64,000 nt of DNA from Moniliella sp. 'wahieum' (GCA_003971905.1 RSEE01000057.1:1-64000), one strand, 5' to 3'; positions 1-64,000 are shown, counted from the first letter of the stretch. Notes: a model not told the origin generated them from the letters alone. Program-made: numbers and translations.

Positions 1-20
1 CCCTAACCTAACCCTAACCC
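1..20. repeat. Telomeric repeat tract (CCCTAA)n, left chromosome end
   Basis: Window starts ccctaa-cctaa-ccctaa-ccc, the C-rich strand of TTAGGG telomeres. Only about 3.5 units are visible. Confidence 0.8.
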
Positions 21-1391
21 AGGGAAAGTGTTGGAAGCTGAAGAAGAGTCTTTACGGTCTACATCAAAGCGGAGCTAAATTTGGTGACTGGCTACGTACC
101 TTTCTCTGTGGTCGACTTGGGTTTACCAGTCTCAAGTCAGAGCCGTGTATCTTCCTTCGTCATACCGATTCCTTGAACCTCATTCTTTTGGCGATCCACA
201 TGACGATTTCCTTGTTGCTTGCCGCTCGGAGGAAATTTACGATTGCTTCCTTGTCGAGCTTCGACGCCATATTGAGATTAAATCCAATGGCCCCTTCGTT
301 TCCACCTCGGATGCCAGTACGACCGCATTAATGGCTGTCTCTATGTGAGCCAGCCAAAATTCATTGCTGAAACGCTTGCTACTCACGACATGACTCACGA
401 CCATCCTCGACGTCTCCCGCTCAGCCATACCCTTCCCTCTTCCCAACGCCCCGAACACGAATCACGTTCGACGCGCGACGACAATCACGTCTACCGCTCT
501 ATGGTTGGGTCCGCTATGTGGTCGGGCGCATGTCACGCCCGGACACATTATTTGCCGCAACCTTTTTGGCTCGTTTCCTGGATGATCCTTCTCGAGCCCA
601 TCGTGACGCTGCCGTTGGCTTGTTGCGATACCTGAAGGGTACTGCTGACCATTCTCTCCGCTTAACACCTGACCGCGCAAGACCCCTCCTTGAACTACAT
701 ACGGATGCTTCTTTTGCTTCGGACAAGCGCTGCTCGCGGTCTGTTTCCGGGTACGTTGTGTTTGTGTATGGTGTGCCTGTCTCGTGGAATACCAAGACAC
801 AGAACCAAGGGGTGAGCAACACAGCCGCTTCCGAATACTTGGCCATGGGTGATGGTTTGCGCGATGCACTCTTTGTGCGCAATATTCTTTTTGAGCTGGG
901 TATTTGTTCTGCTACACACCCAATTCAGCTTTGTGGACAATACTGCAGCCAAGGCTCTTGCCGAGAGCTTGGCAGCCTGGGTAAGATCCGCGAGATCGAT
1001 GTTTGGTACCACGAGGTGCGAGAACGCATCCATTGTGGCGAGCTTGTCGTTCATCATGTCCCGGGCGTGGATCATTTATCTGATTGGTTCACCAAACCTG
1101 TGGTCTTCCCAAACTCCTTTCCACATCTCAACAATTCGATTTGGCTCCCCTTTCTTCTCGTTTGGTTTCATTAACGTGTTTTGGCCTACGAGTTTCCTTT
1201 GGTCCCTTGGCCCGGGGGGGTGTTGAGCCATCAGGTGGCTCGTGCTTTGGCCAATGTCCCTTCAGTTCTCCTCAGGCCTAGGAGTTTCCGTTGTTTTTTC
1301 TCTCCTGTTTTTCCTTGTTCCGCAGCTTAGCCCCTGGTGGCGACTCGCTGCTTGATGTTCCTCTGTACGCGTTGCTGGTTGGCTTACAACA
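21..1391 (+). mobile_element. 5'-truncated Ty1/copia LTR retrotransposon, family A (RT C-terminal half, RNase H, 3' LTR)
   Basis: From nt 23 reads GKCWKLKKSLYGLHQSGA..EPCIF..LLAIH-DDFLV. RNase H motifs LELHTDASFASD..RSVSG..VSW..AASEY..DVWYH..DWFTKP. G-run PPT at about 1214-1220. Several frameshifts. Confidence 0.92.
1221..1391 (+). repeat. 3' LTR of copia family A (about 171 bp)
   Basis: Begins TGTTG right after the G-run PPT and ends CAACA (5-bp terminal inverted repeat). No second copy in the window to confirm the end. Confidence 0.7.
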
Positions 1392-5668: not shown

Positions 5669-6770
5669 CTCCTACCTTGCAATGATACAATCAATCTGGC
5701 GAGATATACTTTTCGCGGTACTTCCCTCCATTTCCCCCCATCTGTCTCTTCCAGCCCAAACAGTGGAATGATTGTAGGCCAGAATTGGTCGCGATGCGGC
5801 TCTCGGGATGGAACTGTTTACCGGCACAAGGTAGCGTCTGCATGTCGATGCTCTTGAAGCGCCTTCATAGCTGCATGTTGGGCAGCGACTGGGACGGCAT
5901 CGGTTGCGTCTACTATGCGCAGGAGGTGGAGGAACAGTGGGCAGCAGCGGTCACCTTTTTTATTGGTCCTGGCTGGAATGACGGTTGTTGGACCAGAAGG
6001 GATTCTATTAGTTGCTTGATTTGTTCATACGAAGTGCGGTGCCCGACACAACTAGCAACTCCTTATGCGAGCGGCTGTAGTCAAAGCCATCATTCGCGAG
6101 GGAACACCATCGTTTCTGCTGCCATAGCTGCCGCTAGTATACCCACCGTAGTAGGGCCGCGGGATCGGCCACACACACTACCTCCAACCCTGGTCTAGTA
6201 CCGCCCTCATCCCTTTCTAGTACCCGATTTTGCACCAGTCGTGCTACTAGGGGCATGCCGCGGCCAAGCGAGAGGTAAAAGTGGGGGGGGAAACATGTGT
6301 TGATTATTCCTAAGACTACTGAGATACTACACTAATGCAGCCTACCGCGCGCAGCAGCACCGACACATCGACGTATCGAGGGGGGCAAAGAAAACAGTGC
6401 ATAGAACACATGGATTTTGGCAAGAACCAGTGCACGCCCACCACACCAAAAGCGGGGAGCGCCCCGACCAAGCCACATTACAGACTGAACAAGACACCCA
6501 GTCCTTTTTGGCATGAGGGGAAGAGGGGGAAGAGAGGGAGGGAAAGGAAAACGAAATCCCCCAGCAAGACCACCCGATGCAAGCCGGATCGATGTGTGGG
6601 ATGCCGTTCTATGCGTGTGATTGGGATTGTTGTCCAAAGACAGCCCACCCGCCTTGACTGCCATTGCACGCTCCCCCCTCCTATCCCAGGCCCAATCCTA
6701 CGCTCCGATCCCAAGCCGACGCTCACGCCCAGGCCCAGGCGACCAAGGAATGAGCACAGGGACGAGACGG

Positions 6771-7289
6771 TTAATAGAACGTCTTGGGCCGGTTCGCAGC
6801 AAAGACACCCTTGGCCGACGACTGGTGGGGCAGGGGGAACTTGAGGTGGGCTGGGCTGGATGAGCTTGATGTACGGGCGACGCACGTCGGCCGCCTTCTC
6901 AATCTCGGCAATCTTCAGAATGTGGATCGAGGCAAAGCGAGCACGATGACGAGCAGCCATGTCCTGGTACATGTTCTCCACCGCCTCGGCACGGGAGAGA
7001 GAACGGTACTCCTTGTACATGTTGTGGGTGCCGGAGCGCGAGTTGTACCGCAGCCACACACCAAAGTTCTTCACCTGAGCGGCTTGGCCTCGGCAATCGC
7101 ATGCACCGCCACAATCTCGCCGGTCGACTTCTTCATCTTACGCAGTGACGAAACGAGAAGTACCAGAAGCGCGACTTGGCCACCACCGAGTTGGGCGCAA
7201 AGATGCGCATGCGGTACAGCTTGGGCGTAGGCTCCTTCTCGGTCGGAAGGTGGCGGCACGACCACGAGGTACTCAGTGAAGCGGGACAT
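6771..7289 (-). CDS. RPL20: 60S ribosomal protein L20 (eL20/L18a)
   Basis: [95 protein letters not shown]. Confidence 0.96.
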
Positions 7290-22775: not shown

Positions 22776-23147
22776 GCTGGGAGATTGCAAACAAGTGGGT
22801 GAAGAAGGAAAGACGGCGACGTGGGGGTGCAAGCAGAACACGTTTTGCATAATCCATTTGAGAGTTTTATACGCGGCAGGCCATGGCCCGTGCGGCAACT
22901 GGCTCGGCTCGTCGCATTTGTGATCGAATTGCGGGAGATAGCCGCACTTTTAAGCATGGCACACGTCACGCCCTCGTCATCTGCTAGTGTGGCTGGATCA
23001 CGTGCGGCACAGATTTCGCCATTCTTCGGAGGACGGGGACGGTATGCGCAGCTTAGGACAAGCTCGGTACTATGAAACCGGATGTAACATTTAACCCACC
23101 TTGCGCTTCCGCGGCAATGCGCAACGCCCCCCAACTGCGTCTGTTAC

Positions 23148-23307
23148 TGTTGACATCCGTCCTAGGACCGCGCGGACCCTGAGTCACGTGAGTCAGCTTT
23201 CATTCCTTCCGAGCTCGCACCAGTCTTCTGGACGAGTCAGTCGCAGAAGCTTCTTAGTCCAATACGACGTTCAGTGCTCACATTCTGTGGTAGTAGCGAG
23301 GCCGACA
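23148..23307 (+). repeat. 5' LTR of copia family B
   Basis: Identical by eye to 28047-28206; TG..CA ends. Confidence 0.97.
23180..23195 (+). promoter_or_regulatory. Tandem TGAGTCA (Gcn4/Cpc1/AP-1-type) sites overlapping a CACGTG E-box in the LTR
   Basis: TGAGTCAcgTGAGTCA, also present in the 3' LTR. Function inferred from consensus only. Confidence 0.45.
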
Positions 23308-23361
23308 GAGTTACATCCTTATCTGCTCATCCCTGAGCTGGCCAAAACTACACCCACAACC

Positions 23362-24609
23362 ATGGGCGCCAACGCTAACACCGATCTCTCGGTCAGCGAC
23401 ACCACAATGGTGAACAAGCGCGATTACTGGACACCAACCGGTCGCGATCCGCCACCGATTGGCACCGACAACGAGGAACTCATGATGCTTTGCGCCGAAG
23501 CGCACCTGTGGTTCAAGAAGACGAACGACATCGATGTCGTTAAAGAGAAGATCAACAGAGCTATACACGACAGAGCCGAGTGGCTTGGATGGAAGGACGA
23601 ACCTACGTCTATCACGACAAACTGGGTTCGACGGGCTACGAATTTTGTGGTGCAAAACATCCACCAAATGGAAACTCAACCCAACGCAACTTTGGGGGCA
23701 CCTACAGGCGCAGCCTCGCGACCCGAGTACGACCTTTACAGATCACTACGCGAGTCTCCCACCAAGAATATCAAGTGGCCTGATCTGAACAAAGACCCGT
23801 CCGCCTACAGCGCTTGGGAAGACGAATTTCTCTTCGCGATAACAGATGCCCACCCCCACGCAAGCGACGTCGTCCAGAATGGTCGCAGCTCCCGCTACTT
23901 CACCGAGGACCTCGACAGACGCTTGCACAACCTTCTTAGGGAAGCCATGCCGTCAACCCTCTTCCGGACGATCCGCACCCACCACGAAATATCATGCACC
24001 CAGGACACGCTGAACATGCTGCGTCAGCGGTATGGATATACGCCTACCGCAAACAGAGGGCCTCTACTCATTCGCTACTTTTCGGCCGACCAAGGAAACC
24101 GATCGGGTCGAGACTACCTCGACTACATGGAAGAGATCAGTGCAAGCCTGACGCGAGCGGGCATCCCACTTACGGAAGAGCAGGAACGCACTGGGATCCT
24201 ACTCGGCTTACGCGACATGAGCATTCGCCAGCGTGAAGAGCGCTCGAGTCTAGACAAGTTACGGCAGGCCGTGATGGACATACCAGCCGCCACGTATCCC
24301 GGTGGAGAAAGGAAGAGAAACGGAGGCAAGCCGGTCAACGGAGGAACGCCTTGGACTCGACCCGACAGCGGGGGACGACCCACCAGCGGGGGAAAAAACT
24401 CCAGCGGGGGCAAAGCCGGCGACGACAACCTCGCGGACACAAAGACCAAGGGGCAAGACCGCACCAACCAACCCTGGCGCAGCGCGACGTCTAATAAACC
24501 TGTTGTCCCTCCGCGCAACCCAGGCCGAGCCAACGCTCACGTCGCTCAGAGAGCGAGCTCTCCCGAGTCTGAAGTGATTGACGTTGATGCGGGCACAGCT
24601 GACTACTAG
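23362..24609 (+). CDS. gag: Gag of copia family B
   Basis: ATG 23362, open to TAG 24607-24609; ..YSAWEDEF..LRQRYG..DYLDYMEEISASLTRAG..ILLGL. No CCHC knuckle. Confidence 0.85.
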   Translation: MGANANTDLSVSDTTMVNKRDYWTPTGRDPPPIGTDNEELMMLCAEAHLWFKKTNDIDVVKEKINRAIHDRAEWLGWKDEPTSITTNWVRRATNFVVQNIHQMETQPNATLGAPTGAASRPEYDLYRSLRESPTKNIKWPDLNKDPSAYSAWEDEFLFAITDAHPHASDVVQNGRSSRYFTEDLDRRLHNLLREAMPSTLFRTIRTHHEISCTQDTLNMLRQRYGYTPTANRGPLLIRYFSADQGNRSGRDYLDYMEEISASLTRAGIPLTEEQERTGILLGLRDMSIRQREERSSLDKLRQAVMDIPAATYPGGERKRNGGKPVNGGTPWTRPDSGGRPTSGGKNSSGGKAGDDNLADTKTKGQDRTNQPWRSATSNKPVVPPRNPGRANAHVAQRASSPESEVIDVDAGTADY

Positions 24610-27600
24610 GAACTCGGGGGCGAAATGCGAATCATCCGGGCATTATATGACAGTGGGGCATTCCCATCCATTTGGAAAGACAAATCCGTCTTCACATCCA
24701 TGACCCCTTGCGACGACGAGATAGAGGTTGCTAACGGGACACATGTAAAGGCGGAAGGACGAGGCACGGCCACAATCCGTATCCGATGCTTAGGAGGACA
24801 CCAAATGGAGATAAAACTCCCCAACAGCCTATACATGCCCCGTTTCAGCCGAAATCTCGTCAGTGTAGCACACCTGTCGAACACCGGAATCGCATCATAC
24901 TTCGCCCCACACCAGAAGGGTATCTGGCTTGGTAACCCAGGATCCACCCTACGAAAAGTAACCGGCAGTGACTATCAATTCACGATCTTACACAACCCGC
25001 GAACGCCACCCACACCCCTGCGGGCCATGGCGACCAAACCGATCAAACCGGCCGACCCACCCTCAACCCCAAACTCCCTCGCAGCATCCCTGGCCCTGGA
25101 CCACGTCTCTAAAGCCCACAAACGCTGGAACCACGCAGCCATCGACCTCCTCCCCTGGCTTACACGATCGGAAACCGCAGGCCTCCGCGTCACAGCCAAG
25201 CATATCTCCCTCTGTCGTTCAGAGTGGGATTGCCCAACATGCGCGGTGGCACTAGCGACAGCATCGCCCCATCCGAGCCGGGACCGCCTCCGATCCAAAA
25301 GACCTTTCGAGGTCCTCCACGTCGACGTAGTAGACCTCCCCCGGGTAACCGGCATGGGGCACGGATACGCCCTCGTCGCCGTTGATGACTTCACGCGGTA
25401 CGTCTTCACCACAGCGATCCCGACAAAGGGCGCTGCAACGAAGGAACTGCGGAACCTCATATTGCGGGAGCAACGCTACGGCCCGGACAGACTGCTGCGG
25501 ACTTTGCGCACGGACAACGCCCCCGAATTGACAAGCGCACTGCAACCTTTTCTGGACGAGCAAGGCATCACGTCAGAACGGACAATCCCGGGGCAGAGTG
25601 CTAGCAACGGTGTGGCTGAGCGTGCCATCCGAACCATAACGACTCGTGCAAGGCAGTTGCTCTTGGGTACAGGTCTTCCGACGTCGGACTGGTGGGAACA
25701 CAGCCTCCACGCTGCGTGCTTCACCCAAAACCAAATGCCACTCAAAACATCCGGGGAAGACAACAAATCGCGATTTGAGCGATACAAAGGCCACGCATAC
25801 TCGTTACCGATGCAACCCTTTGGCCGCGTTGCATACCTCCATCTGCCCGAGTCACGCCGCGAGCACAAGCTCAGCGCGCGGGCAGAGGAAGGTATGCTGG
25901 TAGGATACCACCATCAGCGCGGATCAAAGGGATGGCTCTTCGCCACATACCAACCATCCCTGGGTACCTTCACCTACCGCTGGTCGAAACCGTACAAATG
26001 GGGCAACGCCATCTACCCCCATCTCCACCCCGACCACTTCCCACCCGACATCTCCAAATCACCTCAAATTAAAATCGACAGTGAAAAAGACGCTAACCCT
26101 ACTCCGCCAGCCGCGGCAGCACCCATGCCCCGAACCGCCGCCACCCCAGACACCCGCCCCACCACCACCCCCCCTCCGCGCCGCTACCCCCTCCGCCAGC
26201 GCACCACCCGCACCTCCCTCGACCTGCACACACTCCCAATCGCTGACGACCCCACCGACACGACCTACCATGCTCGTGCTGCAGCCGCCACGCCCCACTG
26301 CGCCGCACCAGAGATCGGCATCGCCCGCCCCCTACCTGACACATCCGCCCCCCCGTTTGCCGACACAGTTCAACCTCCCGAATACGCCGCCATGACTGCT
26401 CTCAGCGCACCCATCCACCCGGACACGGTTCAGCTCACCAAGGATGGCGTACCCCTCGCTCCCAAGACGCTCAAGGGTCTCGAGACTCACCCCTCCTTTG
26501 CCATGGTCAAGCAGGCTATGGCCGACGAGGTGGCCACACTCGCGCGATACGGCACCTACGAGGCTACGTACCCACCACCGGGTGCACAAATCCTCATAGG
26601 ACTATGGCGCATCACCACAAAGACGGACGCCGAGGGCCGGTTCCTGCGCCACCGCGCGCGCTTTGTCGCGGGCGGACACCAACAATCGGCCGAGACTTGG
26701 GGCCAGACGTTCGCACCATCGGTGCGCACACCTGCCATCCTGACCCTCGTCGTGCTGGCCGAGAAGTATAAGTTTGGCCTCTTCTCGGCGGACGTCAATG
26801 CAGCGTACCTGAACGCCCCCCTCGAAGAAGCAGTCTACATCCGCCCACCCCCCTACTTCCCCGAAGTCGCGTGGTGGTCGCGTGTGGCGTCAAGAAGAGT
26901 CTATACGGGCTACATCAGAGCGGAGCAAACTGGGCACGATACATCCGGAACCTGCTGCGTGACAAGCTCGGCTTCACGCAAAGCTTGACCGAGCCCTGCT
27001 TGTTCGTGCGCGCTGCACCACCGGGTGAGCAGATCCTCCTGGCGGTCCACACCGACGATCTGCTCCTCGCATGCAAGTCACACCAAAAGTACGAGGAGTT
27101 TATGGCCGAGATAAACACACACATTGATGTTCGTGGTAACGGTCCCCTTCACTACCACCTGGGATGCCAATACGATCGGATCGGTGGGGAGCTGTACCTG
27201 AGCCAACCAAAGTTCATCGAGGAAGTGGTGGCAAAGCACCACATCAAAGCCCCGTGGATCCGGACTCTCCCACATCCCGTACGGATGATACCGCCCCGTG
27301 CCGACCCTGAACCCCCATCCCTCCCAGCCTTGCGCAAGGCATATCAGGGGAAGATCGGATCGGGACTGTGGGCTGCACGAATGGGCCGGCCTGACTCCCT
27401 CTTCGCTATCACGGCCCTCAGCAGAGCCGCTGCCGACCCATCGCAGCAGCATCATCAAGCAGTCGATGACTTCCTTCGCTACCTGTACCATACTCGAGGA
27501 AAGGGCCTGAGGTTGACCCCAACATCAGATGCACCGGCCATTGCGCTGTATACAGATTCCGACTTGGCGGGAGATCCCATCCAGGCACGCTCCACATCTG

Positions 27601-28052
27601 GATGCCTACTGATGGTGTACGGTGTGCCGGTGTCGTGGCGATCCATTCTTCAGCCGAAGAGCGTTACCAGTACCGCCGCCGCCGAATATACGGCAGGATA
27701 TGATGGACTGGTTGACGCCAACTATGTCAAGAACATCATGATCGAGCTTGGGGCCATCGGCGAGGGTACACCCATTCATTGGTATTGCGACAATAAGTCT
27801 GTCGTCGATCTCGCCCACAAATTTGGCAGCACCGGCAAGCTCCGAGAGCTGAAGATCCGGTACCACAATGTACGGCAACACGTGGACTCGGGCGAGGCCA
27901 TACTTGTACACATCCCCGGCGAAAGGAACCCAGCGGACGTCCTCACCAAGCCTCTCGGCCGTCCCGCCCTGACAAGCCATCTTGCTCAACTCCGCGTCGA
28001 GGAGATGGATCCAGTCCACATGACTGGGCCCTCCGGTCAGCGGGGGTGTTGA
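24610..28052 (+). CDS. pol: Pol of copia family B (protease, integrase, RT, RNase H), in frame with gag after a UAG
   Basis: YDSGA protease; H..H..CPTC and LHVD..RTDNAPE..NGVAERAIRT integrase; RARFVAGG..DVNAAYLNA..KKSLYGLHQSG..HTDD RT; YTDSD..NPADVLTK RNase H. One indel near 26870; the stop lies inside the 3' LTR. Confidence 0.95.
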
Positions 28053-28206
28053 CATCCGTCCTAGGACCGCGCGGACCCTGAGTCACGTGAGTCAGCTTTC
28101 ATTCCTTCCGAGCTCGCACCAGTCTTCTGGACGAGTCAGTCGCAGAAGCTTCTTAGTCCAATACGACGTTCAGTGCTCACATTCTGTGGTAGTAGCGAGG
28201 CCGACA
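28047..28206 (+). repeat. 3' LTR of copia family B
   Basis: Follows the short PPT agcggggg; identical to the 5' LTR. Confidence 0.97.
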
Positions 28207-40296: not shown

Positions 40297-41496
40297 CTAC
40301 TTCTTCGCCCGCTTCTTCACCTCCTCGTCCTTGACTGCGTGCAGGTACACCGCATTTGGCCCTTGGGCTGCGCCCTGCCATCCGCGTGACCAGTCGTACG
40401 AGACGGCGTACGCCAAGATGGTGCCGGTGCGGTTGAACGTGGCGGCAGAGATGGGACCGCCCTTATTGTCGAACGCCTTGAGTCGGATCTTGTTGTCCTT
40501 GTCCCAACTCGAGATGGTCCCGTCCGAGCCGGCGGTGACAAAGGTGCCCTCGGTCGGGTGGAAGGCCAATGCGTTGACCGCAAAGATCTGTGACGGTTCG
40601 CTCCGGTTCGGCGACTCTTTCCGGTGACACTTGAAGGAAAAGTTGGAGGCTTTGTTCTCCTCTCGGATATGCTGGATCGCAACGCGTCCTTCGACACTTC
40701 CCACACCAAACCCAGGCACATTCCCGCCCTTGAAGCAGGACAGAGCGCGTGTCTGCCATTTGAGCGGGCTCTCTTGACTCTGTTGTTCACTCCTGGTCAG
40801 TTCCCTCCCTTTTTCACCGCAGCTTGCCATTGCAAGACCAGACACGTACAATGAACGCCGCTGCCGGGTTGCGCTGCATATCAAAAATCTCAATCTTGCG
40901 TTCGGCCGTGCCGCATACGAGGAAGTTTTGGAACGTGTCCATGGCATAGCATCGCTCCGACAATTGTGCTGTGGCAATGGGGTTAGCCTGGCGCAGATCC
41001 CAGTACTTGACCGTCTTGTCCCAGCTGCCTGTGGCGAGGATACCGCCATTCATGTCGATCCAGCGCAGACACTTGACCGCTTCGTTGTGAGCCGCCACCT
41101 GGCTCGTCTGGCCCGTGTTGACATCAAACAGCCGTGCCGCCTTGTCCACACCAGCAGAGAGGACCTTGGTGCCGTCTGGGCTCCAAATCACATCGAGCAC
41201 AGGAGCCTCGTGGTTGTACGACGCCTTGCCCGAGGAGGTGCCGTTAGCCTCGACGCCGTAGATGCGCACCGAGTTGTCCCAGCTGGACACGGCTAGGAAG
41301 TCGGCGGCGGGGAGAAGGAGAGGGCAGAGATGCTGTCGGGCGGGGGCTGGGCCAGCGCAATGTCTTCGTTGGCGGCAGGCACGGCGGGGGTTACGATGGA
41401 GGGACGCGCGGCGCCAAACTGGACAGAGGAGGCGGACTGGGTAGTGCCAAAGGCGGGGCGCGCACCAAAGGTGCTGGATCCACCAAAGAGCGACAT
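40297..41496 (-). CDS. RAE1: mRNA export factor Rae1/Gle2 (WD40)
   Basis: PPDSISALSFSP..LAVSSWDNSVRIY..LATGSWDKTVKYWDLR..ERCYAMD..ESPLKWQTR..GSVEGRVAIQ..NFSFKCHR..TAGSDG..AYAVSYDWSRG. Intron about 40780-40849. Confidence 0.95.
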
Positions 41497-46073: not shown

Positions 46074-47997
46074 ATGGCCTCCTCTTCACCGCCGCCGCAC
46101 CGTCGAGGTGCGTCTGCACACCGGCCACACCCTCCGGGCACCATCGCCAGCGTCGACCCGTCCAGCAGACCCTCACCGTCGCCACTGCCCACCGCACCTT
46201 CACCTGGCCCAAGACCCACATTGCGTCTCTCACCCTCTGCGACGCTCCCCCGAGCCACAGGCACAGTACACCCACAGGTACACCCACAGGTACACCCACA
46301 GGCACAGCCACAGGTAGAGCGTCCTCTACAGCTGCCCCGCCCACTGGTTCCTCACCCGCCCCAGCGCATTCGGCACCTGTCCAACACACCACTGCCTCGC
46401 CTCGGCGTGACGCTGGCGGACCATTCCCGATCGCAAAAAGACGCGGGGGAAGAAAGTCTCTACGGCCAGTCCTAGGCTGCCGCCAGGCACGCCCACAGGC
46501 ACAGGCAAGCCCACAGGCACAGGCAAGGCCACAGGCACGGGTGTGAGCACGGGTGTGCCGCCGCCCATCCCCGCCCGGGCTTTTCCGACGACTTTGACTT
46601 TGATGCAGCGCTGGGCAAGTTTGATAAGAAAAAGGAGTTTGAGGATTTAAGGTACGGGAGCGTTTAGCGTTTTCCTCTGCCCTCTTCCCTCTTCCCTCTT
46701 CCCTCTTCCCTCTTCCCTCTTCCCTCTTCCCTCTTCCCTCTTCCCTCTTCCCTCTTCCTCCCTCTTCCCCTTCCCTCTTCCCTCTTCCCTCTTCCCTCTT
46801 CCCTCTTCCCTCTTCCTCTTCCCTCTTCCCTCTTCCCTCTTCCCTCTTCCCTCTTCCCTCTTCCCTCTTCCCTCTTCCCTCTTCCCTCTTCCCTCTTCCC
46901 TCTTCCCGCTCTTTCCCTCTTCCCTCTTCCCTCTTCCCTCTTCCCTCTTCCCTCTTCCTCTTCCCTCTTCCCTCTTCCCTCTTCCTTCTTCCCTCTTCTC
47001 TTCCCTGTTCATTTGGCACATACAAGAAACCAAAGGGGGGGGGGGGGGGGGTACCACGCATGTCGACACGAGCGAACTAGCAGCTAACCTACCCATTTGG
47101 TATCTGGTCACTCAGAATGCCGACAAGACCGATCCTGCGCACCTTCTCGTGTCGCACAACAAGGCTGTACCGGGCTTGATCCCGCTCGTGCGCGGACCCA
47201 ATGGCGTTGGCCCAGCACCTCAAAGTCCAGTGCGCGCCAACCGCCCACGCGGCGCTCAGGATAAGTTGGGCATACACGAACCGGTGCTCAGTCCGCCCAG
47301 TTCGGAGTATGCGGTGCCCAGGTCGCCTCGGGCGCCTGCTGCGTCGCTCTCTGCTCGGGCGGCAAGAACGCCAAAGACGCCAACAACAACAAAGACGCCA
47401 AAGGCACGGATACGAGCGCAGCAAAGGAAAGCAAGGACGGGACGCGGAGTACTTCTCGTTCGCAGTCGCACTCGCGCACGCGCGGGGCCGAAGACGAGGA
47501 CGGGGAAAAGCAAGAGTTACGCATACGGGTCGCGTTGCTTGAAGCGTTGGCGGGGCTCCATGTGCAGCCTGCTGCGCCGGCGCCGGCGGAACTGGGCGTA
47601 AGCGAGCGGGCACGGACGTACGATGTGACTATGTTTCCGGGACCATGTCGCACAGAGTTTGGCTGCGACAGACGAGATGTACCCGACGGCCGCGACGGGC
47701 CCGACGCACTTTGAAGGTCAAGTGCAGTTTACTGTCGCCGCCTTGCCGGCTCCCCCTGCGGCAGCGACAAGGCCAAGCACAGCGACAAGCACACCGACAG
47801 CGCCCAAGACAACGGCAGCGGCCAAGACAAGGTTGTTGGAAGTACGCTATTTGGGCGTGAACGATGCAGCTACGGACCCTACGCTCCGCGGCGATGCTAT
47901 GCCGTTCAAGTACTCACGCTCCTTCACCCTCCGCCCGGAAACGGCACCTATCTTCGTTCGTCGCTTGCGAGCGGCCACGTTCCGCGATGCCGAGTAA
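46074..47997 (+). CDS. FDF/DFDF-motif protein (Edc3-like FDF domain) with an atypical C-terminus
   Basis: FSDDFDFDAALGKFDKKKEFEDL (46581-46649), intron 46652-47115, then NADKTDPAHLLVSHNK..QDKLGIHEPVL. No LSm or YjeF_N domain recognised. Confidence 0.6.
46680..47006. repeat. Intronic homopyrimidine 7-bp microsatellite (CCTCTTC)n, about 46 units
   Basis: Read directly; followed by a 17-G run at 47035-47051. Confidence 0.95.
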
Positions 47998-57780: not shown

Positions 57781-58606
57781 TTACCCAAGGGGAGGTACGT
57801 TGGTGCAACTTGCGCGCGCTCGCGACGTGCTCTCGATTGGAATCACGAGCAGAGCTGCGTCCTCGAAACACGTCCCTTCGTCCCGTCCAGCTTTTGCATT
57901 CGCATTCCCAGTTGCAGGGAAAGTAGGACTGGTAGCATTAGTAGTAGTGGTAGTAGTGGAAGTAGTTTCGGCGGTGGCCTGAGCTAAAGGTTGCGCTTCG
58001 TCCAGCCTATCGAGGAGGATGAGGTCGTCGGGGACGCCAGCTTGGGCAAGCGTGAGGTGGGGCAAGTTCAGACGGACGCCGTTGCATGTGAGCCGCTGGT
58101 GCGAGACGGGGATGCCTGTGTCGAGGGCCAGGGCGGCCTGGAATTGGGCCAGGGTGGTGTGCAGCGCAAACTGCACAGAGAAGCAGTCGTTGTCGGGGGT
58201 GATGAGTGTGAGCGTGGGTTTGGGCGCGGGCGTGGAGTGTGAATGTGCGTGTGGGTGGGAGTGGGATTTGCAGTAGTAATAGTAGAAGGAGTAGAAGTAG
58301 TCACAGGAGGAGTAGTGGTAACCGTGGCAGTAGTAGTAGCAGCAGCGGCAGCAGCAGCAGCCTGAGCTGAGGACTCCGCTTCGTCCTCCTTATCGAGAAG
58401 GATGAGGTCGTCGGGCCGACGCCAGCTTGGGAGGGTGAGGGTGGGGGGCAAGTTCAGACGGGTGCCGTTGCATGTGAGCCGCTGGTGCGGGACGGGGATG
58501 CCTGTGTGTCGAGGGCCAGGGCGGCCTGGAACTGGGCGAGGGTGGTGGTGTGCAGCGCAAACTGCACAGAGAAGCAGTCGTTGTCGGGGGTGATGAGCGT
58601 GAGCAT
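57781..58606 (-). CDS. Protein with two tandem Ddi1-type ubiquitin-like domains joined by a Thr/Ala-rich linker
   Basis: Two near-identical copies of LTLITPDNDCFSVQFALHTTLAQFQAALALDTGIPV.HQRLTCNG.RLNLP..TL...GV.DDLILLD (about 58606-58390 and 58214-58005). TATATA about 75 nt upstream. Frameshifts; the stop may be 57781 or 57711. Confidence 0.7.
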
Positions 58607-59328: not shown

Positions 59329-59474
59329 GAGCTACAATCTGAAGCACCCCACTGGCGCAAAGGATCAATACTCAGCACCACCATCGGCGCCCACCGTCAC
59401 CACCACCACCCCAACGCCACCATCGGCACCACACACCAACCAATTCAAAAAAAACAAAGGAAAAATCAGCCACC

Positions 59475-60706
59475 ATGCCCCCCGAACTGGAAGAAAACAC
59501 CCCTCCTCCCGAAGTCTCTGTCATCGAAGAGGCGCAGGACATCGACGAACCGACCACCACCCCTGTCTCCGACCCGACCTGGCAACAGGCCCTCACCGAC
59601 GTCAGAGACAACCTCCTCGCAAGCACCCGCGCGTTCAAGCCCACCAGCGCTGACAATCTCCGCTCCACATGCCGCTCGTTCGCTACGGATGCACACACGG
59701 CGGCGTATGGACCGAAGAGCAAGAAAACACCGGGCGGAAAGGAAAATTGGATCTACACGCTCACCCTCGCGTTGGAGAAATATGTATTGGCCGTTGAATT
59801 CACGAAGCCGCAAAACACCCGTGAGGCCCTTGCATCCGCGAGTGAGGACATGGCCGAGCTTCGCCACGCTGAGAAACGCGCGTCAAAAGAGATCGAGCGT
59901 ACCAACGCGACGCGCAAGGACGCCTTCCGCGACCCCACCGAATATGTGCTCTGGGAGCCCTCCATCCTCAACATCCTGGACCGCATCCACCCCGCCGCGA
60001 AGGACATCGTTCGCTCCGGTCCATCGTCACCACACTACGACTCGTCCCTCGATCTACGCCTCCAGAACCTTCTGTGGTCCCACCTCCCGAACGACGTTCA
60101 ATCTGCCATTATTGCACAGGACAACGTTGACACGTCAGCTGACTTGCTCCGTGCCTGCGAAACAAATACGGTACGGTCGACTGCAAGACGTATCATGAAT
60201 TGTCCAGTCGCTTTCACCACTGCTACCAAAACCGGCGCAGCGGGAGCGAGTTCCTATCTGAAATGGGGACGCTCCGCAACCGGATCAGCGCAACCACACC
60301 GATGTCGGACGAGCAATTCCGCCGTATCCTCGTCGGGGCCCTCCGCGACCCTGGTGACCGTCGCCGCCTAGAGCATATGACTCTGGCGGAGACAATGCAA
60401 GACGTGGAGAGAATCCCAGCGGACCCAGAGTACAGAATTCCGTACCGGGGCCGTCACCCCCGGACCGCCAACTCGGGCGCTGGCAAACACGACAGCGCGG
60501 GATCCCAGCAGCATAGCGGGGGTCCTCCTGCCGGTGCATCTCCCCGTAGCGGGGGTGCTCTTGCGAGAAAGCCGTCCGGCCACACCGGGGTTCCTTCGAA
60601 CAACAAATGGCACCGCAACAGCTCCGCGCGAGCGCACATTGCCACCGAAGACGACGTCTCCGAAGGGGAGACCCTGTCTGTGGACCTTGCCCTATCTGAC
60701 AAATAG
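59475..60706 (+). CDS. gag: Gag of copia family C
   Basis: ATG 59475; TEYVLWE..LRNKYG..RSGSEFLSEM..ILVGAL. One missing base near 60154 restores alignment to family B gag. Ends TAG 60704-60706. Confidence 0.8.
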
Positions 60707-63700
60707 GAACTCGCGGGCAACCAGGACATCCAGTCTCGTCACGACTCGGGCGCGGATCCTAGCATCTGGAAGGATCTCAGGGTATTCAAAACCCTCAAGC
60801 CCAGCAACCGCTCAATCGAAATCGCTGATGGAAAACATATTAAAGCCAGTGGACGCGGAACATGTAGCATCGGTATCAAGTGTACCGACGGCAAATGTAT
60901 CCATGTAGACCTACCCGGCAGTCTATACGTCCCCGGCATAGCAAGCAATCTCACGAGCGTAGCGCAAATAAGTGACGCAGGCCACGCATCCTGGTTCGCC
61001 CCCCACCGAAAAGGTATCTGGTTAAATGACAAGCATGGCAAATATCACCAAATCGCGGATTCCTCATACAAGCTGAACATCGTCCCGAAACCGACACCCA
61101 CAAACGAACACGCGGCCAAAGCTGCCGTCGCCACCCAACACACCGCAGCCAACACCATCGAGCACGTCATGTACGTTCACCAACAGTACAACCACGCCGC
61201 GCTAGACCTACTCCCGACACTAACCGCCAACGCGCGAGCGAGCCTCCGCGTCAGCCCTGCCCAAATCCGACGCATCCGCCCCTTCTGGCATTGTCCCACC
61301 TGCACAAAAGCTCTGGCCAAAGCGCCCAGCCACCCTTCGCGCCACGGCCGCCGCATTTCGGAACGTCCTTTCGAAGTACTGCACGCCGACGTAGTCGACC
61401 TCCCTCGCATCACTGGCATGGGACATGGATACGCCCTGGTCGCGGTTGATGACTGGAGCCGTTACACCTTCGCTGTTCCCCTAAAGACGAAAGGACAAGC
61501 CACGGCGGAGCTGAAAAAACTCATCACCCGCGAGCAACGCATCGGAAAGGACCGTCTGCTTCGCATCTTGAAGACAGACAATGCCCCCGAGCTCACCAGC
61601 GCACTCCGTCCGTTCCTTGAATCCGAAGGTATCACGACGGAAACCACCATACCAGGCCAAAGTCAATCAAATGGGGTGGCCGAGCGAGCCATCCAGGCAA
61701 TCACCACACGCGCGCGCCAACTCATCATCGCCTCGGGCCTCCCGACATCAAACTGGTGGCAGGATGCCTTGCTGGCAGGGTGCTGGACGCACAACCTCAT
61801 GCCACCGACATCTCCACGCCAGGGCACACAATCTCGGGCTGAGCTGTACAAGGGGTCACCCCCACCGCTGCCAATGCACGCCTTCGGATCCTTGGCGTAC
61901 CTTCACCTGGCCCAGGACCAACGTGACCATAAGCTCAGTCCGCGGGCTGTCGAAGCCATGCTCGTCGGGTACGACGCAGGTCGAGGTACAAAGGGTTGGC
62001 GCTGGGCTGTGTACGACCCGTCCATGGGCACGTTCCGATCCCAATGGGCAAAACCATACAAGTGGACCCAGCGCCAATACCACGAGGTTTTCCCCGACCG
62101 CTTTCCGCCTGACGTATCTCGCTTCCCCGCTCAACCCCTGCCTGACAGAACTATGACTGACACTGAAACCAAAAAGGGAGAAGAAAAAATGAACAAAATT
62201 GAAGTTGCAAATCCCAACACACCACCGAGAATCAACACTGATACTGACGCGACCATCGCAAGACAAAACGACACCCATCCAACCACCCCCACCACCAGAC
62301 GGTACCCCGCCCGGACCCACCAGCGCCGTTTTGACCTTGACTGGGCACAGCTCCCCGTAGCGGACGACCCTCATGATGGTGACTTCCACGCACACGCTGC
62401 CGCGCTGCCTCCGGTTCCCCTCCCTGACGGTAGTCGTAGTCCTGCGATCGGCCTACGCTTCCCACTGCCCGACACTGCCCTGCCCGCGTACAGCGACGGT
62501 CTCCATCCGCCTGAATACAAGGCGATGATCGCCCTTAGCGAGCCAGGGCCGCACGAGCGCATCCAGCTCACCAAGGACGGAGTACCTGTTGCACCCAAGA
62601 CAATGAAGGGCCTCCAATCACACCCCTCATTCGAACCAGTGCTGGAGGCGATGCGCACGGAAATCGACACCCTAGCCCGCTACGGCACATTCGAAGTCGT
62701 CACGCCCCCTCCAGACGCGCAGCTGCTGATTGGTCTGTGGCGCATCAACACCAAAACGGACGCGGACGGAAATTTCCTACGCTACCGAGCCCGTCTCGTT
62801 GCCGGGGGCCACCAGCAGGATGCTGACACATGGGGACAAACATTCGCCCCTGCCGTGCGCACTCCTGCCATCCTCAGCCTTATCGCCCTTGCTGGAAAGT
62901 TCGGCCTCCACCTCTTCACTGCTGATGTGCACTCTGCCTATTTGAACGCTCCCCTCACGGAAAAAGTGTACCTCCGCCCACCCCCATTCTTTCCCGAGGA
63001 AAAAGGCAAGGTCTGGCGTCTCCGGAAAAGCCTATATGGCCTCCACCAATCCGGCGCAAACTGGGCGGTATTCATCCGTGACTTGCTCCGCGGAGACATG
63101 GGTTTTGTACAATCTCTGGCTGAGCCGTGCTTGTTCATCCGACCCCGTAAAGGCGACACGGTCCTCCTTGCCGTGCACACCGACGATCTTCTCATCGCCT
63201 GCACGTCTCACGCACGCTACGATTCCTTCCTCACTGAGATCAACACCCATATCGAGGTGCGAGGGGCGGGAAACGGCCCCCTACACTACCATCTTGGCTG
63301 CCAGTACGACACCATAAACGGGAAACTGTACCTTAGCCAGCCAAAATTCATTGAGGAATCCATTGCCAAACATGAGGTTCCGCCACCCCTGGTTATGGGC
63401 CTCCCCCACCCCAGCAAGATGATCCCCGCGCGCACCGACCCCGAACCGCCCGCACTGCCCGCCGAGAGACGCGACTACCAAGCCAAAGTAGGATCTGGGC
63501 TGTGGGCTGCCCGCATGTGCCGCCCTGATGCGCTGTTCGGCATCTCAGCTCTAAGCCGAGCAACTGCCGATCCCTCCAAGGCCCACCGCGCTGCGGCAAC
63601 AAACTTCCTCCGCTACCTCTACGGTACCAAGGGCTACGGTCTCCGACTAACACCCGAGCCTGACGCACCCGCTCTCGCGCTATACACGGATGCCGACCTG

Positions 63701-64000
63701 GCTGGAGACCCTGACCAATGGCGTTCCACGTCGGGATGCCTGCTTTTCGTCTACGGGGTTCCAGTGTCCTGGAGGAGCGTGCGTCAACCCAAGAGCGTCA
63801 CCAACACTGCTGCGGCCGAATATACGGCGGGATATGAGGGCCTCATTGATGCGAACTACGTTAAAAACATCTTACTGGAGCTCGGTGCCATCACCTCAGA
63901 CGAGCCCATACACTGGTACTGCGACAACATGGCGGCACTTGCCTTGGCCGAAAAAGTGGGCAGCACGGGCAAACTACGTGAGCTGAACATCCGGTACCAC
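60707..64000 (+). CDS. pol: Pol of copia family C, in frame after the gag UAG and running to the window end
   Basis: ELAGNQDIQSRHDSGADPSIWKD protease; H..H..CPTC and LHADVVD..KTDNAPE..NGVAERAI integrase; RKSLYGLHQSG..HTDD RT; YTDADLAGD RNase H. First and last codons share the same frame. Confidence 0.93.

Follow-up and report, generated by a model that had tools for sequence, protein, structure and literature searches.

How Pol is produced in Ty1/copia retrotransposons whose gag ends with an in-frame stop codon has been a question since Tca2, whose junction test came out negative, and copia groups with two open reading frames (ORFs) have been noted in plants and diatoms, with no mechanism given in the passages concerned (PMC6317226; PMC2806351). 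For RNA viruses, the relevant parts of Firth et al. (2011, PMC3159437) assign to an 'extended 3' stem' class of readthrough sites Venezuelan equine encephalitis virus (VEEV), Sindbis virus, furo-, pomo-, tobra- and pecluviruses and a coltivirus. In VEEV, the experimentally tested stimulator has a spacer of 8-9 nt, and its stem, of 11-12 bp with a single bulged nucleotide, encloses a loop of 101 nt; other virus genera, several of them infecting plants, have spacers of 7-8 nt and stems of at least 12 bp, and in the plant viruses the whole element spans 96-138 nt (PMC3159437). According to the same source, murine leukaemia virus (MuLV) has an 8-nt spacer the sequence of which matters, and the UAG-G sites of Tombusviridae and luteoviruses depend on structure or long-range pairing. 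Here we describe the gag-pol junctions of two Ty1/copia elements, B and C, in a stretch of 64,000 nt from Moniliella sp. 'wahieum' (GCA_003971905.1 RSEE01000057.1:1-64000), the whole of which we refer to as the window. In both elements, gag ends with a TAG that is in frame with pol, and a stem predicted to begin immediately past a short conserved spacer is closed by an arm located about 280 nt downstream. Because this geometry is that of tested readthrough stimulators, we read the junction, with a probability of roughly 0.6, as a site of programmed UAG readthrough driven by the spacer and an extended 3' stem of the alphavirus kind. The features of the two elements that bear on this reading are the following.

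23148-28206, family B whole element, Ty1/copia, complete
23148..23307, plus strand, family B 5' long terminal repeat (LTR), TG...CA, 160 bp, 100% identical to 28047-28206
28047..28206, plus strand, family B 3' LTR, TG...CA, 160 bp
23362..24606, plus strand, family B gag ORF, 415 codons, starting with the ATG at 23362 and uninterrupted up to the TAG
24599..24603, plus strand, conserved CTGAC upstream of the B stop (codons -3/-2), identical in C at 60696-60700
24607..24609, plus strand, B gag stop TAG, in frame with pol
24610..24616, plus strand, B spacer GAACTCG, 7 nt, predicted to be unpaired (low pair probabilities), identical to the 7 nt that follow the C stop
24649..24660, plus strand, codons of the B protease active site DSGA, from the translation
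24610..28052, plus strand, family B pol (protease, integrase, reverse transcriptase (RT) and RNase H), frame break near 26844-26865
~59475 to the window end, plus strand, family C element, Ty1/copia, runs off the window
59475..60703, plus strand, family C gag, candidate ATG at 59475, frame break near 60150
60696..60700, plus strand, conserved CTGAC upstream of the C stop
60704..60706, plus strand, C gag stop TAG, in frame with pol
60707..60714, plus strand, C spacer GAACTCGC, 8 nt, predicted to be unpaired
60743..60754, plus strand, codons of the C protease active site DSGA, beginning at the 13th codon after the stop
61169..61171, plus strand, first in-frame ATG of C pol, past the whole protease, codon 155
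60707..64000, plus strand, family C pol, 1097 codons without a stop, running to the window end

The codons that the first-pass annotation of this DNA had given around the two stops are exact, namely, GAC TAC TAG GAA CTC GGG GGC GAA ATG in B and GAC AAA TAG GAA CTC GCG GGC AAC in C, and pol indeed continues in the gag frame: the translations of 23095-26988 (B) and 60143-63997 (C) are open apart from the TAG, which is the sole internal stop in each. In a codon alignment of the two elements, the TAGs occupy one column, 12-13 codons ahead of DSGA. The 15-mer that begins at the stop is identical at 14 of 15 positions, as first reported, and its exact matches in the window are these two sites only. 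When up to three mismatches are allowed, there are 8 matches in the window versus 3.87 expected, a count reached in 3 of 100 shuffles; a third motif-like site, at 41294, is a chance match antisense to a WD40 gene. The divergence of the flanks, likewise claimed at the outset, is confirmed: protein identity between B and C is 26-29% in gag, and in pol it is 53-54% before and about 70% after the RT break, and nucleotide identity is 53% over the 2.9 kb aligned.

The conserved block is longer than first noted and extends to 23 nt, CTGAC-N-A-N-TAG-GAACTCG-S-GGGC, of which 20 are identical. Across the alignment, 22 of the 2899 sliding 15-nt segments reach 14/15 identity and 43 of the 2891 sliding 23-nt segments reach at least 20/23; among the latter, every segment but that at the stop falls within the integrase or RT cores. 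The three residues after the stop that are identical in the two elements (E, L and G) are encoded by identical codons, against an alignment-wide baseline of 178 among 447 identical-residue pairs. With two sequences as their basis, these statistics on conservation are no more than suggestive. Directly after the stop, B and C both have the six bases GAACUC, in agreement with the earlier statement that the context is not of the CARYYA or CUAG type; nor is it the alphavirus context UGA-C(GG/UA), the sequence in B and C being UAG-GAA-CUC. Reassignment of TAG as a sense codon was considered and is ruled out, given a single TAG in the ~1200-1300 codons of each element.

Because the TAG is homologous in two deeply diverged families that are under protein constraint, we regard it as a family feature rather than a sign of decay. 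The least likely of the rival explanations, and a highly improbable one, is that the two TAGs are inactivating mutations in dead copies, the shared context being due to chance or inherited from a dead ancestor. Each copy does contain a frameshift, the comparison covers only two copies, and long open frames are common at 60% GC (145 stop-to-stop frames of at least 150 aa in the 64 kb). Decay would nevertheless have to account for the same codon in the same column in families with 26-29% gag identity, for a pol that is open for 1097 codons in C and 752 codons in B with all Pfam domains present, for the identity of the two B LTRs, for the existence of a further copy of family C that is 96% identical in protein, and for synonymous sites that fit the stem described below in both elements.

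Splicing offers another way around the stop, which could be removed with an intron if the TAG served as a 3' splice site, with CTGAC as branch point and a YAG acceptor, or if the stop were intronic, so that a spliced mRNA would encode Gag-Pol. The CTGAC conserved 4 nt ahead of the TAG in B and C conforms to CTRAY, the branch consensus of fungi, and copia elements of Drosophila and plants usually rely on splicing (PMC2194720; PMC5580714). However, the 600 nt that precede the TAG contain no donor of the form GT[AGT]NG[TC] in B or in C, whatever the frame, and a looser donor pattern gives a single in-frame candidate in B, a poor one 984 nt ahead of the TAG, and none in C. Only 7 nt would separate the branch A from the AG, and a pyrimidine tract is lacking, whereas the host intron in the window, a single one from which the norm is taken, has CTAAC ~20 nt before CAG and a T-rich tract. 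Furthermore, known copia splicing yields a gag-only mRNA, which would be needless given the stop codon. Removal of the TAG with an intron is therefore very unlikely.

The search for a compact structure close to the stop gave null results throughout. Folds of 120 nt from the stop have z-scores of +1.24 and -0.75, and 120-nt folds that include 40 nt of gag have z-scores of +1.23 and +1.20, with no signal in either case; the two-sequence alignment fold of 160 nt is weak (-7 kcal/mol). An enumerator of H-type pseudoknots, limited to perfect stems, finds none in B and one of 4+4 bp in C that is equalled or beaten by 63 of 200 shuffles. A compact pseudoknot in the 80 nt downstream, which the first-pass annotation had proposed to look for, is thus not borne out, and because the local folds and the enumerator are null, a MuLV-like compact pseudoknot is unsupported. 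A scan against Rfam 15 gave 0 matches at the gathering score anywhere in the window, and in 24500-25000 and 60600-61100 there were none even at E<=1.

By contrast with these local folds, a long-range stem emerged when each element was scanned for complementarity with the post-stop motif: the top match in B lies 281 nt downstream, and the homologous place in C is likewise complementary. Folds of ~300-360 nt give one architecture in both elements, in the minimum free energy (MFE) structure as well as in the centroid. Its strands are the following.

24617..24653, plus strand, predicted 5' strand of the B stem, helices 24617-30, 24635-39 and 24648-53
24874..24908, plus strand, predicted 3' strand of the B stem, 24874-79, 24884-88, 24890-95 and 24901-08, inside the codons for LSNTGIASYFAP
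60715..60742, plus strand, predicted 5' strand of the C stem, 60715-26 and 60733-42
60972..61001, plus strand, predicted 3' strand of the C stem, 60972-82 (C60978 bulged), 60989-96 and 60998-61001 (C60997 bulged), codons for SDAGHASWFAP

The predicted stem starts at the conserved GGGC, 7 nt (B) or 8 nt (C) past the TAG, so that the earlier suggestion of a spacer of about 8 nt followed by a structure initiated at GGGC agrees with the computed stem base; in C, the spacer left unpaired in the fold is GAACUCGC. The 3' arm lies ~270-290 nt downstream in homologous codons, which encode ASxFAP, or ...AS(Y/W)FAP. In B, 24617-24630 are paired with 24890-95 and 24901-08 (14 bp), 24635-39 with 24884-88 and 24648-53 with 24874-79, for a total of 25 bp; in C, 60715-26 are paired with 60989-61001 (12 bp, one bulged C) and 60733-42 with 60972-82 (10 bp, one bulged C), for a total of 22 bp. 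The four pairs that open the stem, GGGC with GCCC, are homologous and the same in B and C, which explains why GGGC is part of the conserved 15-mer. The peptide encoded where the 5' arm falls, between the stop and DSG, is little conserved, which leaves this arm free to follow its partner in sequence. With a basal helix of 14 bp in B and 12 bp in C, a start 7-8 nt past the stop and a long loop, both predictions have the make-up of the extended stem class (about 11 bp or more, 7-9 nt past the stop, long loop).

The predicted pairing is largely stable to the choice of the sequence folded. For five sizes of folded segment (321-1001 nt), all 14 B pairs are in the MFE structure for four of the five and all 12 C pairs for five of the five, and the mean pair probability of the stem is 0.98 in B (at four of the five sizes) and 0.98-0.99 in C (at all five). 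Compared with dinucleotide shuffles, the ~300-nt domain has a z-score of -5.25 in B (0/100 as stable) and -2.76 in C (2/100). Over the 2.8 kb that can be aligned, there are 407 pairs with a probability of at least 0.8 in B and 513 in C; only for 24 of the B pairs is there a counterpart at the homologous position in C, 22 of the 24 being pairs of this stem. Across the entire element, the best duplex partner of each 5' arm is its own 3' arm, which ranks first among 83 loci in B (-34.9 kcal/mol, z -4.4) and first among 82 loci in C (-34.1 kcal/mol, z -4.85), and the cross-pairings are weaker, at -24.1 kcal/mol for the 5' arm of B with the 3' arm of C and -11.8 kcal/mol for the reverse combination. 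The stem depends on synonymous sites: when both arms were recoded synonymously, 0 of 2000 variants were as stable as the native sequence in B and 0 of 2000 in C, and when the arms were set only by homology to the other element, 2 of 2000 were in C and 5 of 2000 in B. Among control pairs of segments at equal spacing, 0 of 36 reach p<=0.01 in both elements. A second place with a conserved best partner, 25820-25925 in B and 61884-62010 in C (-41.6 and -31.4 kcal/mol), is a candidate local hairpin ~1.2 kb into pol, well ahead of the RT domain; its pairing is absent from the conserved high-probability pairs over the 2.8 kb.

In C, the first in-frame ATG, at 61169, lies past the protease, and the only closely related database protein, P0001, starts exactly there, which upholds the argument of the first-pass annotation that reinitiation at an AUG could not yield the protease of this element. 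A broader alternative is that Pol is made without readthrough, through non-canonical bypass of the stop, an internal promoter, an internal ribosome entry site (IRES) or non-AUG initiation past the stop, with the stem serving that route; a large structured domain could in principle be IRES-like, and B has an in-frame AUG 5 codons past the stop. For Tca2, in the sources concerned the sole copia element studied at the bench, the junction did not suffice for readthrough of the UGA in S. cerevisiae, and a minor internal promoter was detected there (PMC2194720; PMC7175516). Tca2, cited at first as a case of established UGA readthrough, is described in print as an unresolved stop bypass (PMC2194720); its authors' own conclusion is that pol is expressed from the gag-pol RNA. 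For B and C, production of Pol without readthrough appears quite unlikely, considering that C has no AUG before codon 155, that the conserved island takes in the stop codon together with its 5' neighbours, and that a stem base 7-8 nt from the stop is the geometry of a recoding stimulator (PMC3159437).

Under programmed readthrough, most ribosomes would terminate at the UAG and release Gag, and a minority would decode the UAG with a near-cognate tRNA and continue into Gag-Pol. In yeast, glutamine, tyrosine or lysine is inserted at UAG. In C, readthrough would be the sole evident route to a translated protease. The putative stimulator would have three parts: the UAG-G context with the conserved 7-nt spacer GAACUCG; the extended imperfect stem, the base of which, 7-8 nt past the stop, would lie at the mRNA entry channel of a ribosome with the UAG in its A site; and the 3' strand ~270-290 nt downstream, which would close a structured domain of ~290 nt. 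Such a domain would take up some 100 codons of the 5' part of pol and, with them, the greater part of the sequence that encodes the protease.

A number of points weigh against this reading. What the sequences establish directly is the stop, the frame, the conserved block and the prediction of a stem; its formation in vivo, a stimulating effect on readthrough and the extent of readthrough are matters that we infer. Support for the stem comes from two sequences only, and beyond the four invariant G-C/C-G pairs the helix registers differ, so that there is no classical column-by-column covariation. Because the arms were found post hoc, the recoding tests of both arms are biased upward, and the test with arms defined by homology corrects this bias only partly. 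The GC-rich background favours pairing in general: the partners of arbitrary 32-nt segments average -26.6 kcal/mol in B and -28.1 kcal/mol in C within 700 nt, and 3 of 59 control segments have a positionally conserved best partner, one of them being the 3' arm of this very stem. At one of the five segment sizes in B, only 6 of the 14 pairs are in the MFE structure. Each copy has one frameshift outside the junction (B in RT, C in gag), so that neither is demonstrably autonomous. The ATG at 24625 gives B a possible start for pol 5 codons past the stop. Finally, the 300-nt junction of Tca2 gave no readthrough in S. cerevisiae, and the bypass mechanism there is unsettled (PMC2194720). As to the last point, the sequence past the stop was about 150 nt long in the reporters used for Tca2 (PMC7175516), and because the 3' arm in B and C lies ~280 nt from the stop, reporters of that kind would miss such a signal.

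The region between the arms, ~220-230 nt long, is also about twice the 101-nt loop of VEEV. This large loop is in keeping with the rival possibility that readthrough is basal or driven by local context only and that the stem serves packaging, dimerisation, stability or the slowing of ribosomes in the protease region; the linear block from -8 to +15 could then act alone, as do the 6-nt CARYYA and the short UGA-CU contexts (PMC3159437; 10.1101/2022.12.06.519325). However, UAG-G is a poor context by itself, and in viruses it is paired with downstream or long-range structure, as in MuLV (UAG-GGA) and Tombusviridae (UAG-GGR) (PMC3159437), and the stem in B and C is the only positionally conserved structure in the 2.8 kb and starts exactly where the conserved spacer ends. 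We consider it unlikely that local context acts alone.

The two elements are diverged families of a single Ty1/copia lineage. After both TAGs, the Pfam domains follow in the Ty1/copia order, Pol_BBD (protease), rve, SH3_retrovirus and RVT_2, the RNase H region at the C terminus can be aligned with copia polyproteins, and the catalytic motifs and Pfam domains downstream of the stop are intact in B and C; the Pol_BBD match of B covers pol residues 13-93. Element B is delimited by its LTRs and by a short target-site duplication, the pentamers GTTAC and GTTAT at its flanks being identical at 4 of 5 positions, and because the LTRs are 100% identical, the insertion is recent. The stop codon of B pol, TGA 28050-28052, is located inside the first 6 nt of the 3' LTR, so that pol overlaps the LTR. 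The RT frame break of B, at 26844-26865, corresponds to a 2-nt length difference relative to C, despite the identical LTRs, and could be a recent mutation, a sign of mobilisation in trans or an assembly error. Element C begins upstream of 59475, and a 5' LTR was not located for it. Compared with B, its gag changes frame at ~60140-60160, the N-terminal part being in the frame 59343-60371 and the C-terminal part in the frame 60143-60706. A direct repeat of 111 nt, 57922-58032 and 58305-58415 (71% identical), is present ~1 kb upstream of element C.

The Gag proteins of B and C have no Pfam match and are without a CCHC zinc knuckle, with a Gly/Ser/Arg/Pro-rich tail at the end. They are without sequence relatives among 5.8 billion proteins, a search with the B Gag giving 0 matches, and the feature-based look-alikes of the B Gag in the Atlas, Ty1 TYA (0.90) and copia gag (0.88), are leads only. 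The protein that spans the junction likewise gave 0 matches for B, and for C the sole match was P0001, which begins after the protease. In an HMMER scan of 1.84 billion representatives, there was one close match, again P0001, with 96% protein identity to C, and the 149 other matches listed are all at most 35% identical. Similarly, the nearest database copia to the RT of B and C is at ~35% identity among the matches listed. The nearest outgroup polyproteins, P0005, P0006 and P0007 (34-35% identity), come from GC-rich sources and are pol-only models of 1052-1117 aa, one of which begins 7 residues ahead of its DSG motif; these pol-only models hint at a wider clade that keeps gag and pol apart. 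No relative was found in a protein scan of bacterial and archaeal contigs. A match to the 23-mer DNA pattern in one actinomycete contig was rejected as due to chance, the contig being without copia homology.

The window is eukaryotic DNA of ~60% GC, for which the form of its one host intron makes a fungal host plausible, and contains three copia-type pieces, namely, elements B and C and a fragment of a third family, A, which is without a gag-pol junction and is ~37% identical in protein to B and C. Besides the genes listed here, it encodes a fatty-acid hydroxylase, a WD40 protein and a fragment of a nitronate monooxygenase. A tandem array at 46643-47024, with a period of ~14 nt and 18 overlapping copies, lies within long open frames on both strands.

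1-1174, plus strand, truncated RT/RNase H fragment of family A, interrupted by the start of the window
6481-7137, minus strand, host gene for ribosomal protein L18A/L20
8511-10423, plus strand, host gene for an FAD-binding reductase, one intron, GTAGGT...CTAAC...CAG

Elements B and C provide a concrete candidate signal that can be mutated, a spacer and a stem with its far arm ~280 nt downstream. For annotation, this means that such elements should not be called dead on account of this stop. More speculatively, the junction might represent a separate retrotransposon recoding module, in which a folded domain of ~290 nt coding for the protease, by way of its basal stem together with GAACUCG and CUGAC, sets the ratio of Gag to Gag-Pol at the UAG; this possibility, which is doubtful at present, could account for the way in which Tca2 and other two-ORF copia elements get past their stop. 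In our literature searches, no copia element was found described with a UAG and a long-range stem, and the comparison with known systems accordingly extends to other retroelements and to viruses.

Like B and C, in which the structure is a predicted one, MuLV has an in-frame gag-pol UAG followed by G, a conserved spacer of ~8 nt, an RNA structure and a stop located just upstream of the protease. In MuLV, however, the structure is a compact H-type pseudoknot and the spacer is purine-rich, whereas GAACUCG is not purine-rich and no pseudoknot beyond the level of shuffles is found in B and C. Tca2 of Candida albicans, itself a Ty1/copia element, resembles B and C in having one frame with a single stop, an 8-nt spacer and a predicted structure, but its stop is UGA, its spacer is purine-rich and its predicted pseudoknot is local, according to the passages that describe it (PMC2194720; PMC7175516). 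The fission yeast elements Tj1, Tosmo and Tcry1 also are fungal LTR elements with a short conserved block over an in-frame gag-pol stop; unlike B and C, they belong to Ty3/gypsy and have an in-frame TGA within the 8-nt GAA-TGA-CT, a known readthrough context, and no downstream structure is reported for them in the passages concerned (10.1101/2022.12.06.519325).

With the Tombusviridae and luteoviruses, B and C share UAG-G and, as a prediction, a pairing that reaches well past the local 100 nt, but in these plant RNA viruses a distance of ~700 nt to kilobases separates the site from its distal partner (PMC3159437), whereas both arms of the stem in B and C lie within 300 nt. The alphavirus type differs in having UGA-C instead of UAG-G and a loop less than half as long in VEEV, and the stem in B and C is predicted to be extended by further helices and is carried by an LTR retrotransposon. 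At the same time, the predicted junction has in common with the alphavirus type an unpaired spacer of 7-9 nt, a bulged stem, a long and partly structured loop, all of this in coding sequence, and arms that stand out as islands of synonymous-site constraint. Thus, of the distinct readthrough signal originally proposed, the spacer and the structure that follows it stand as predictions, whereas their architecture is less distinct than supposed, being known from alphavirus-type sites (PMC3159437). If the readthrough interpretation of B and C is correct, the extended 3' stem class of stimulators would be widened from RNA viruses to a cellular retroelement with UAG-G.

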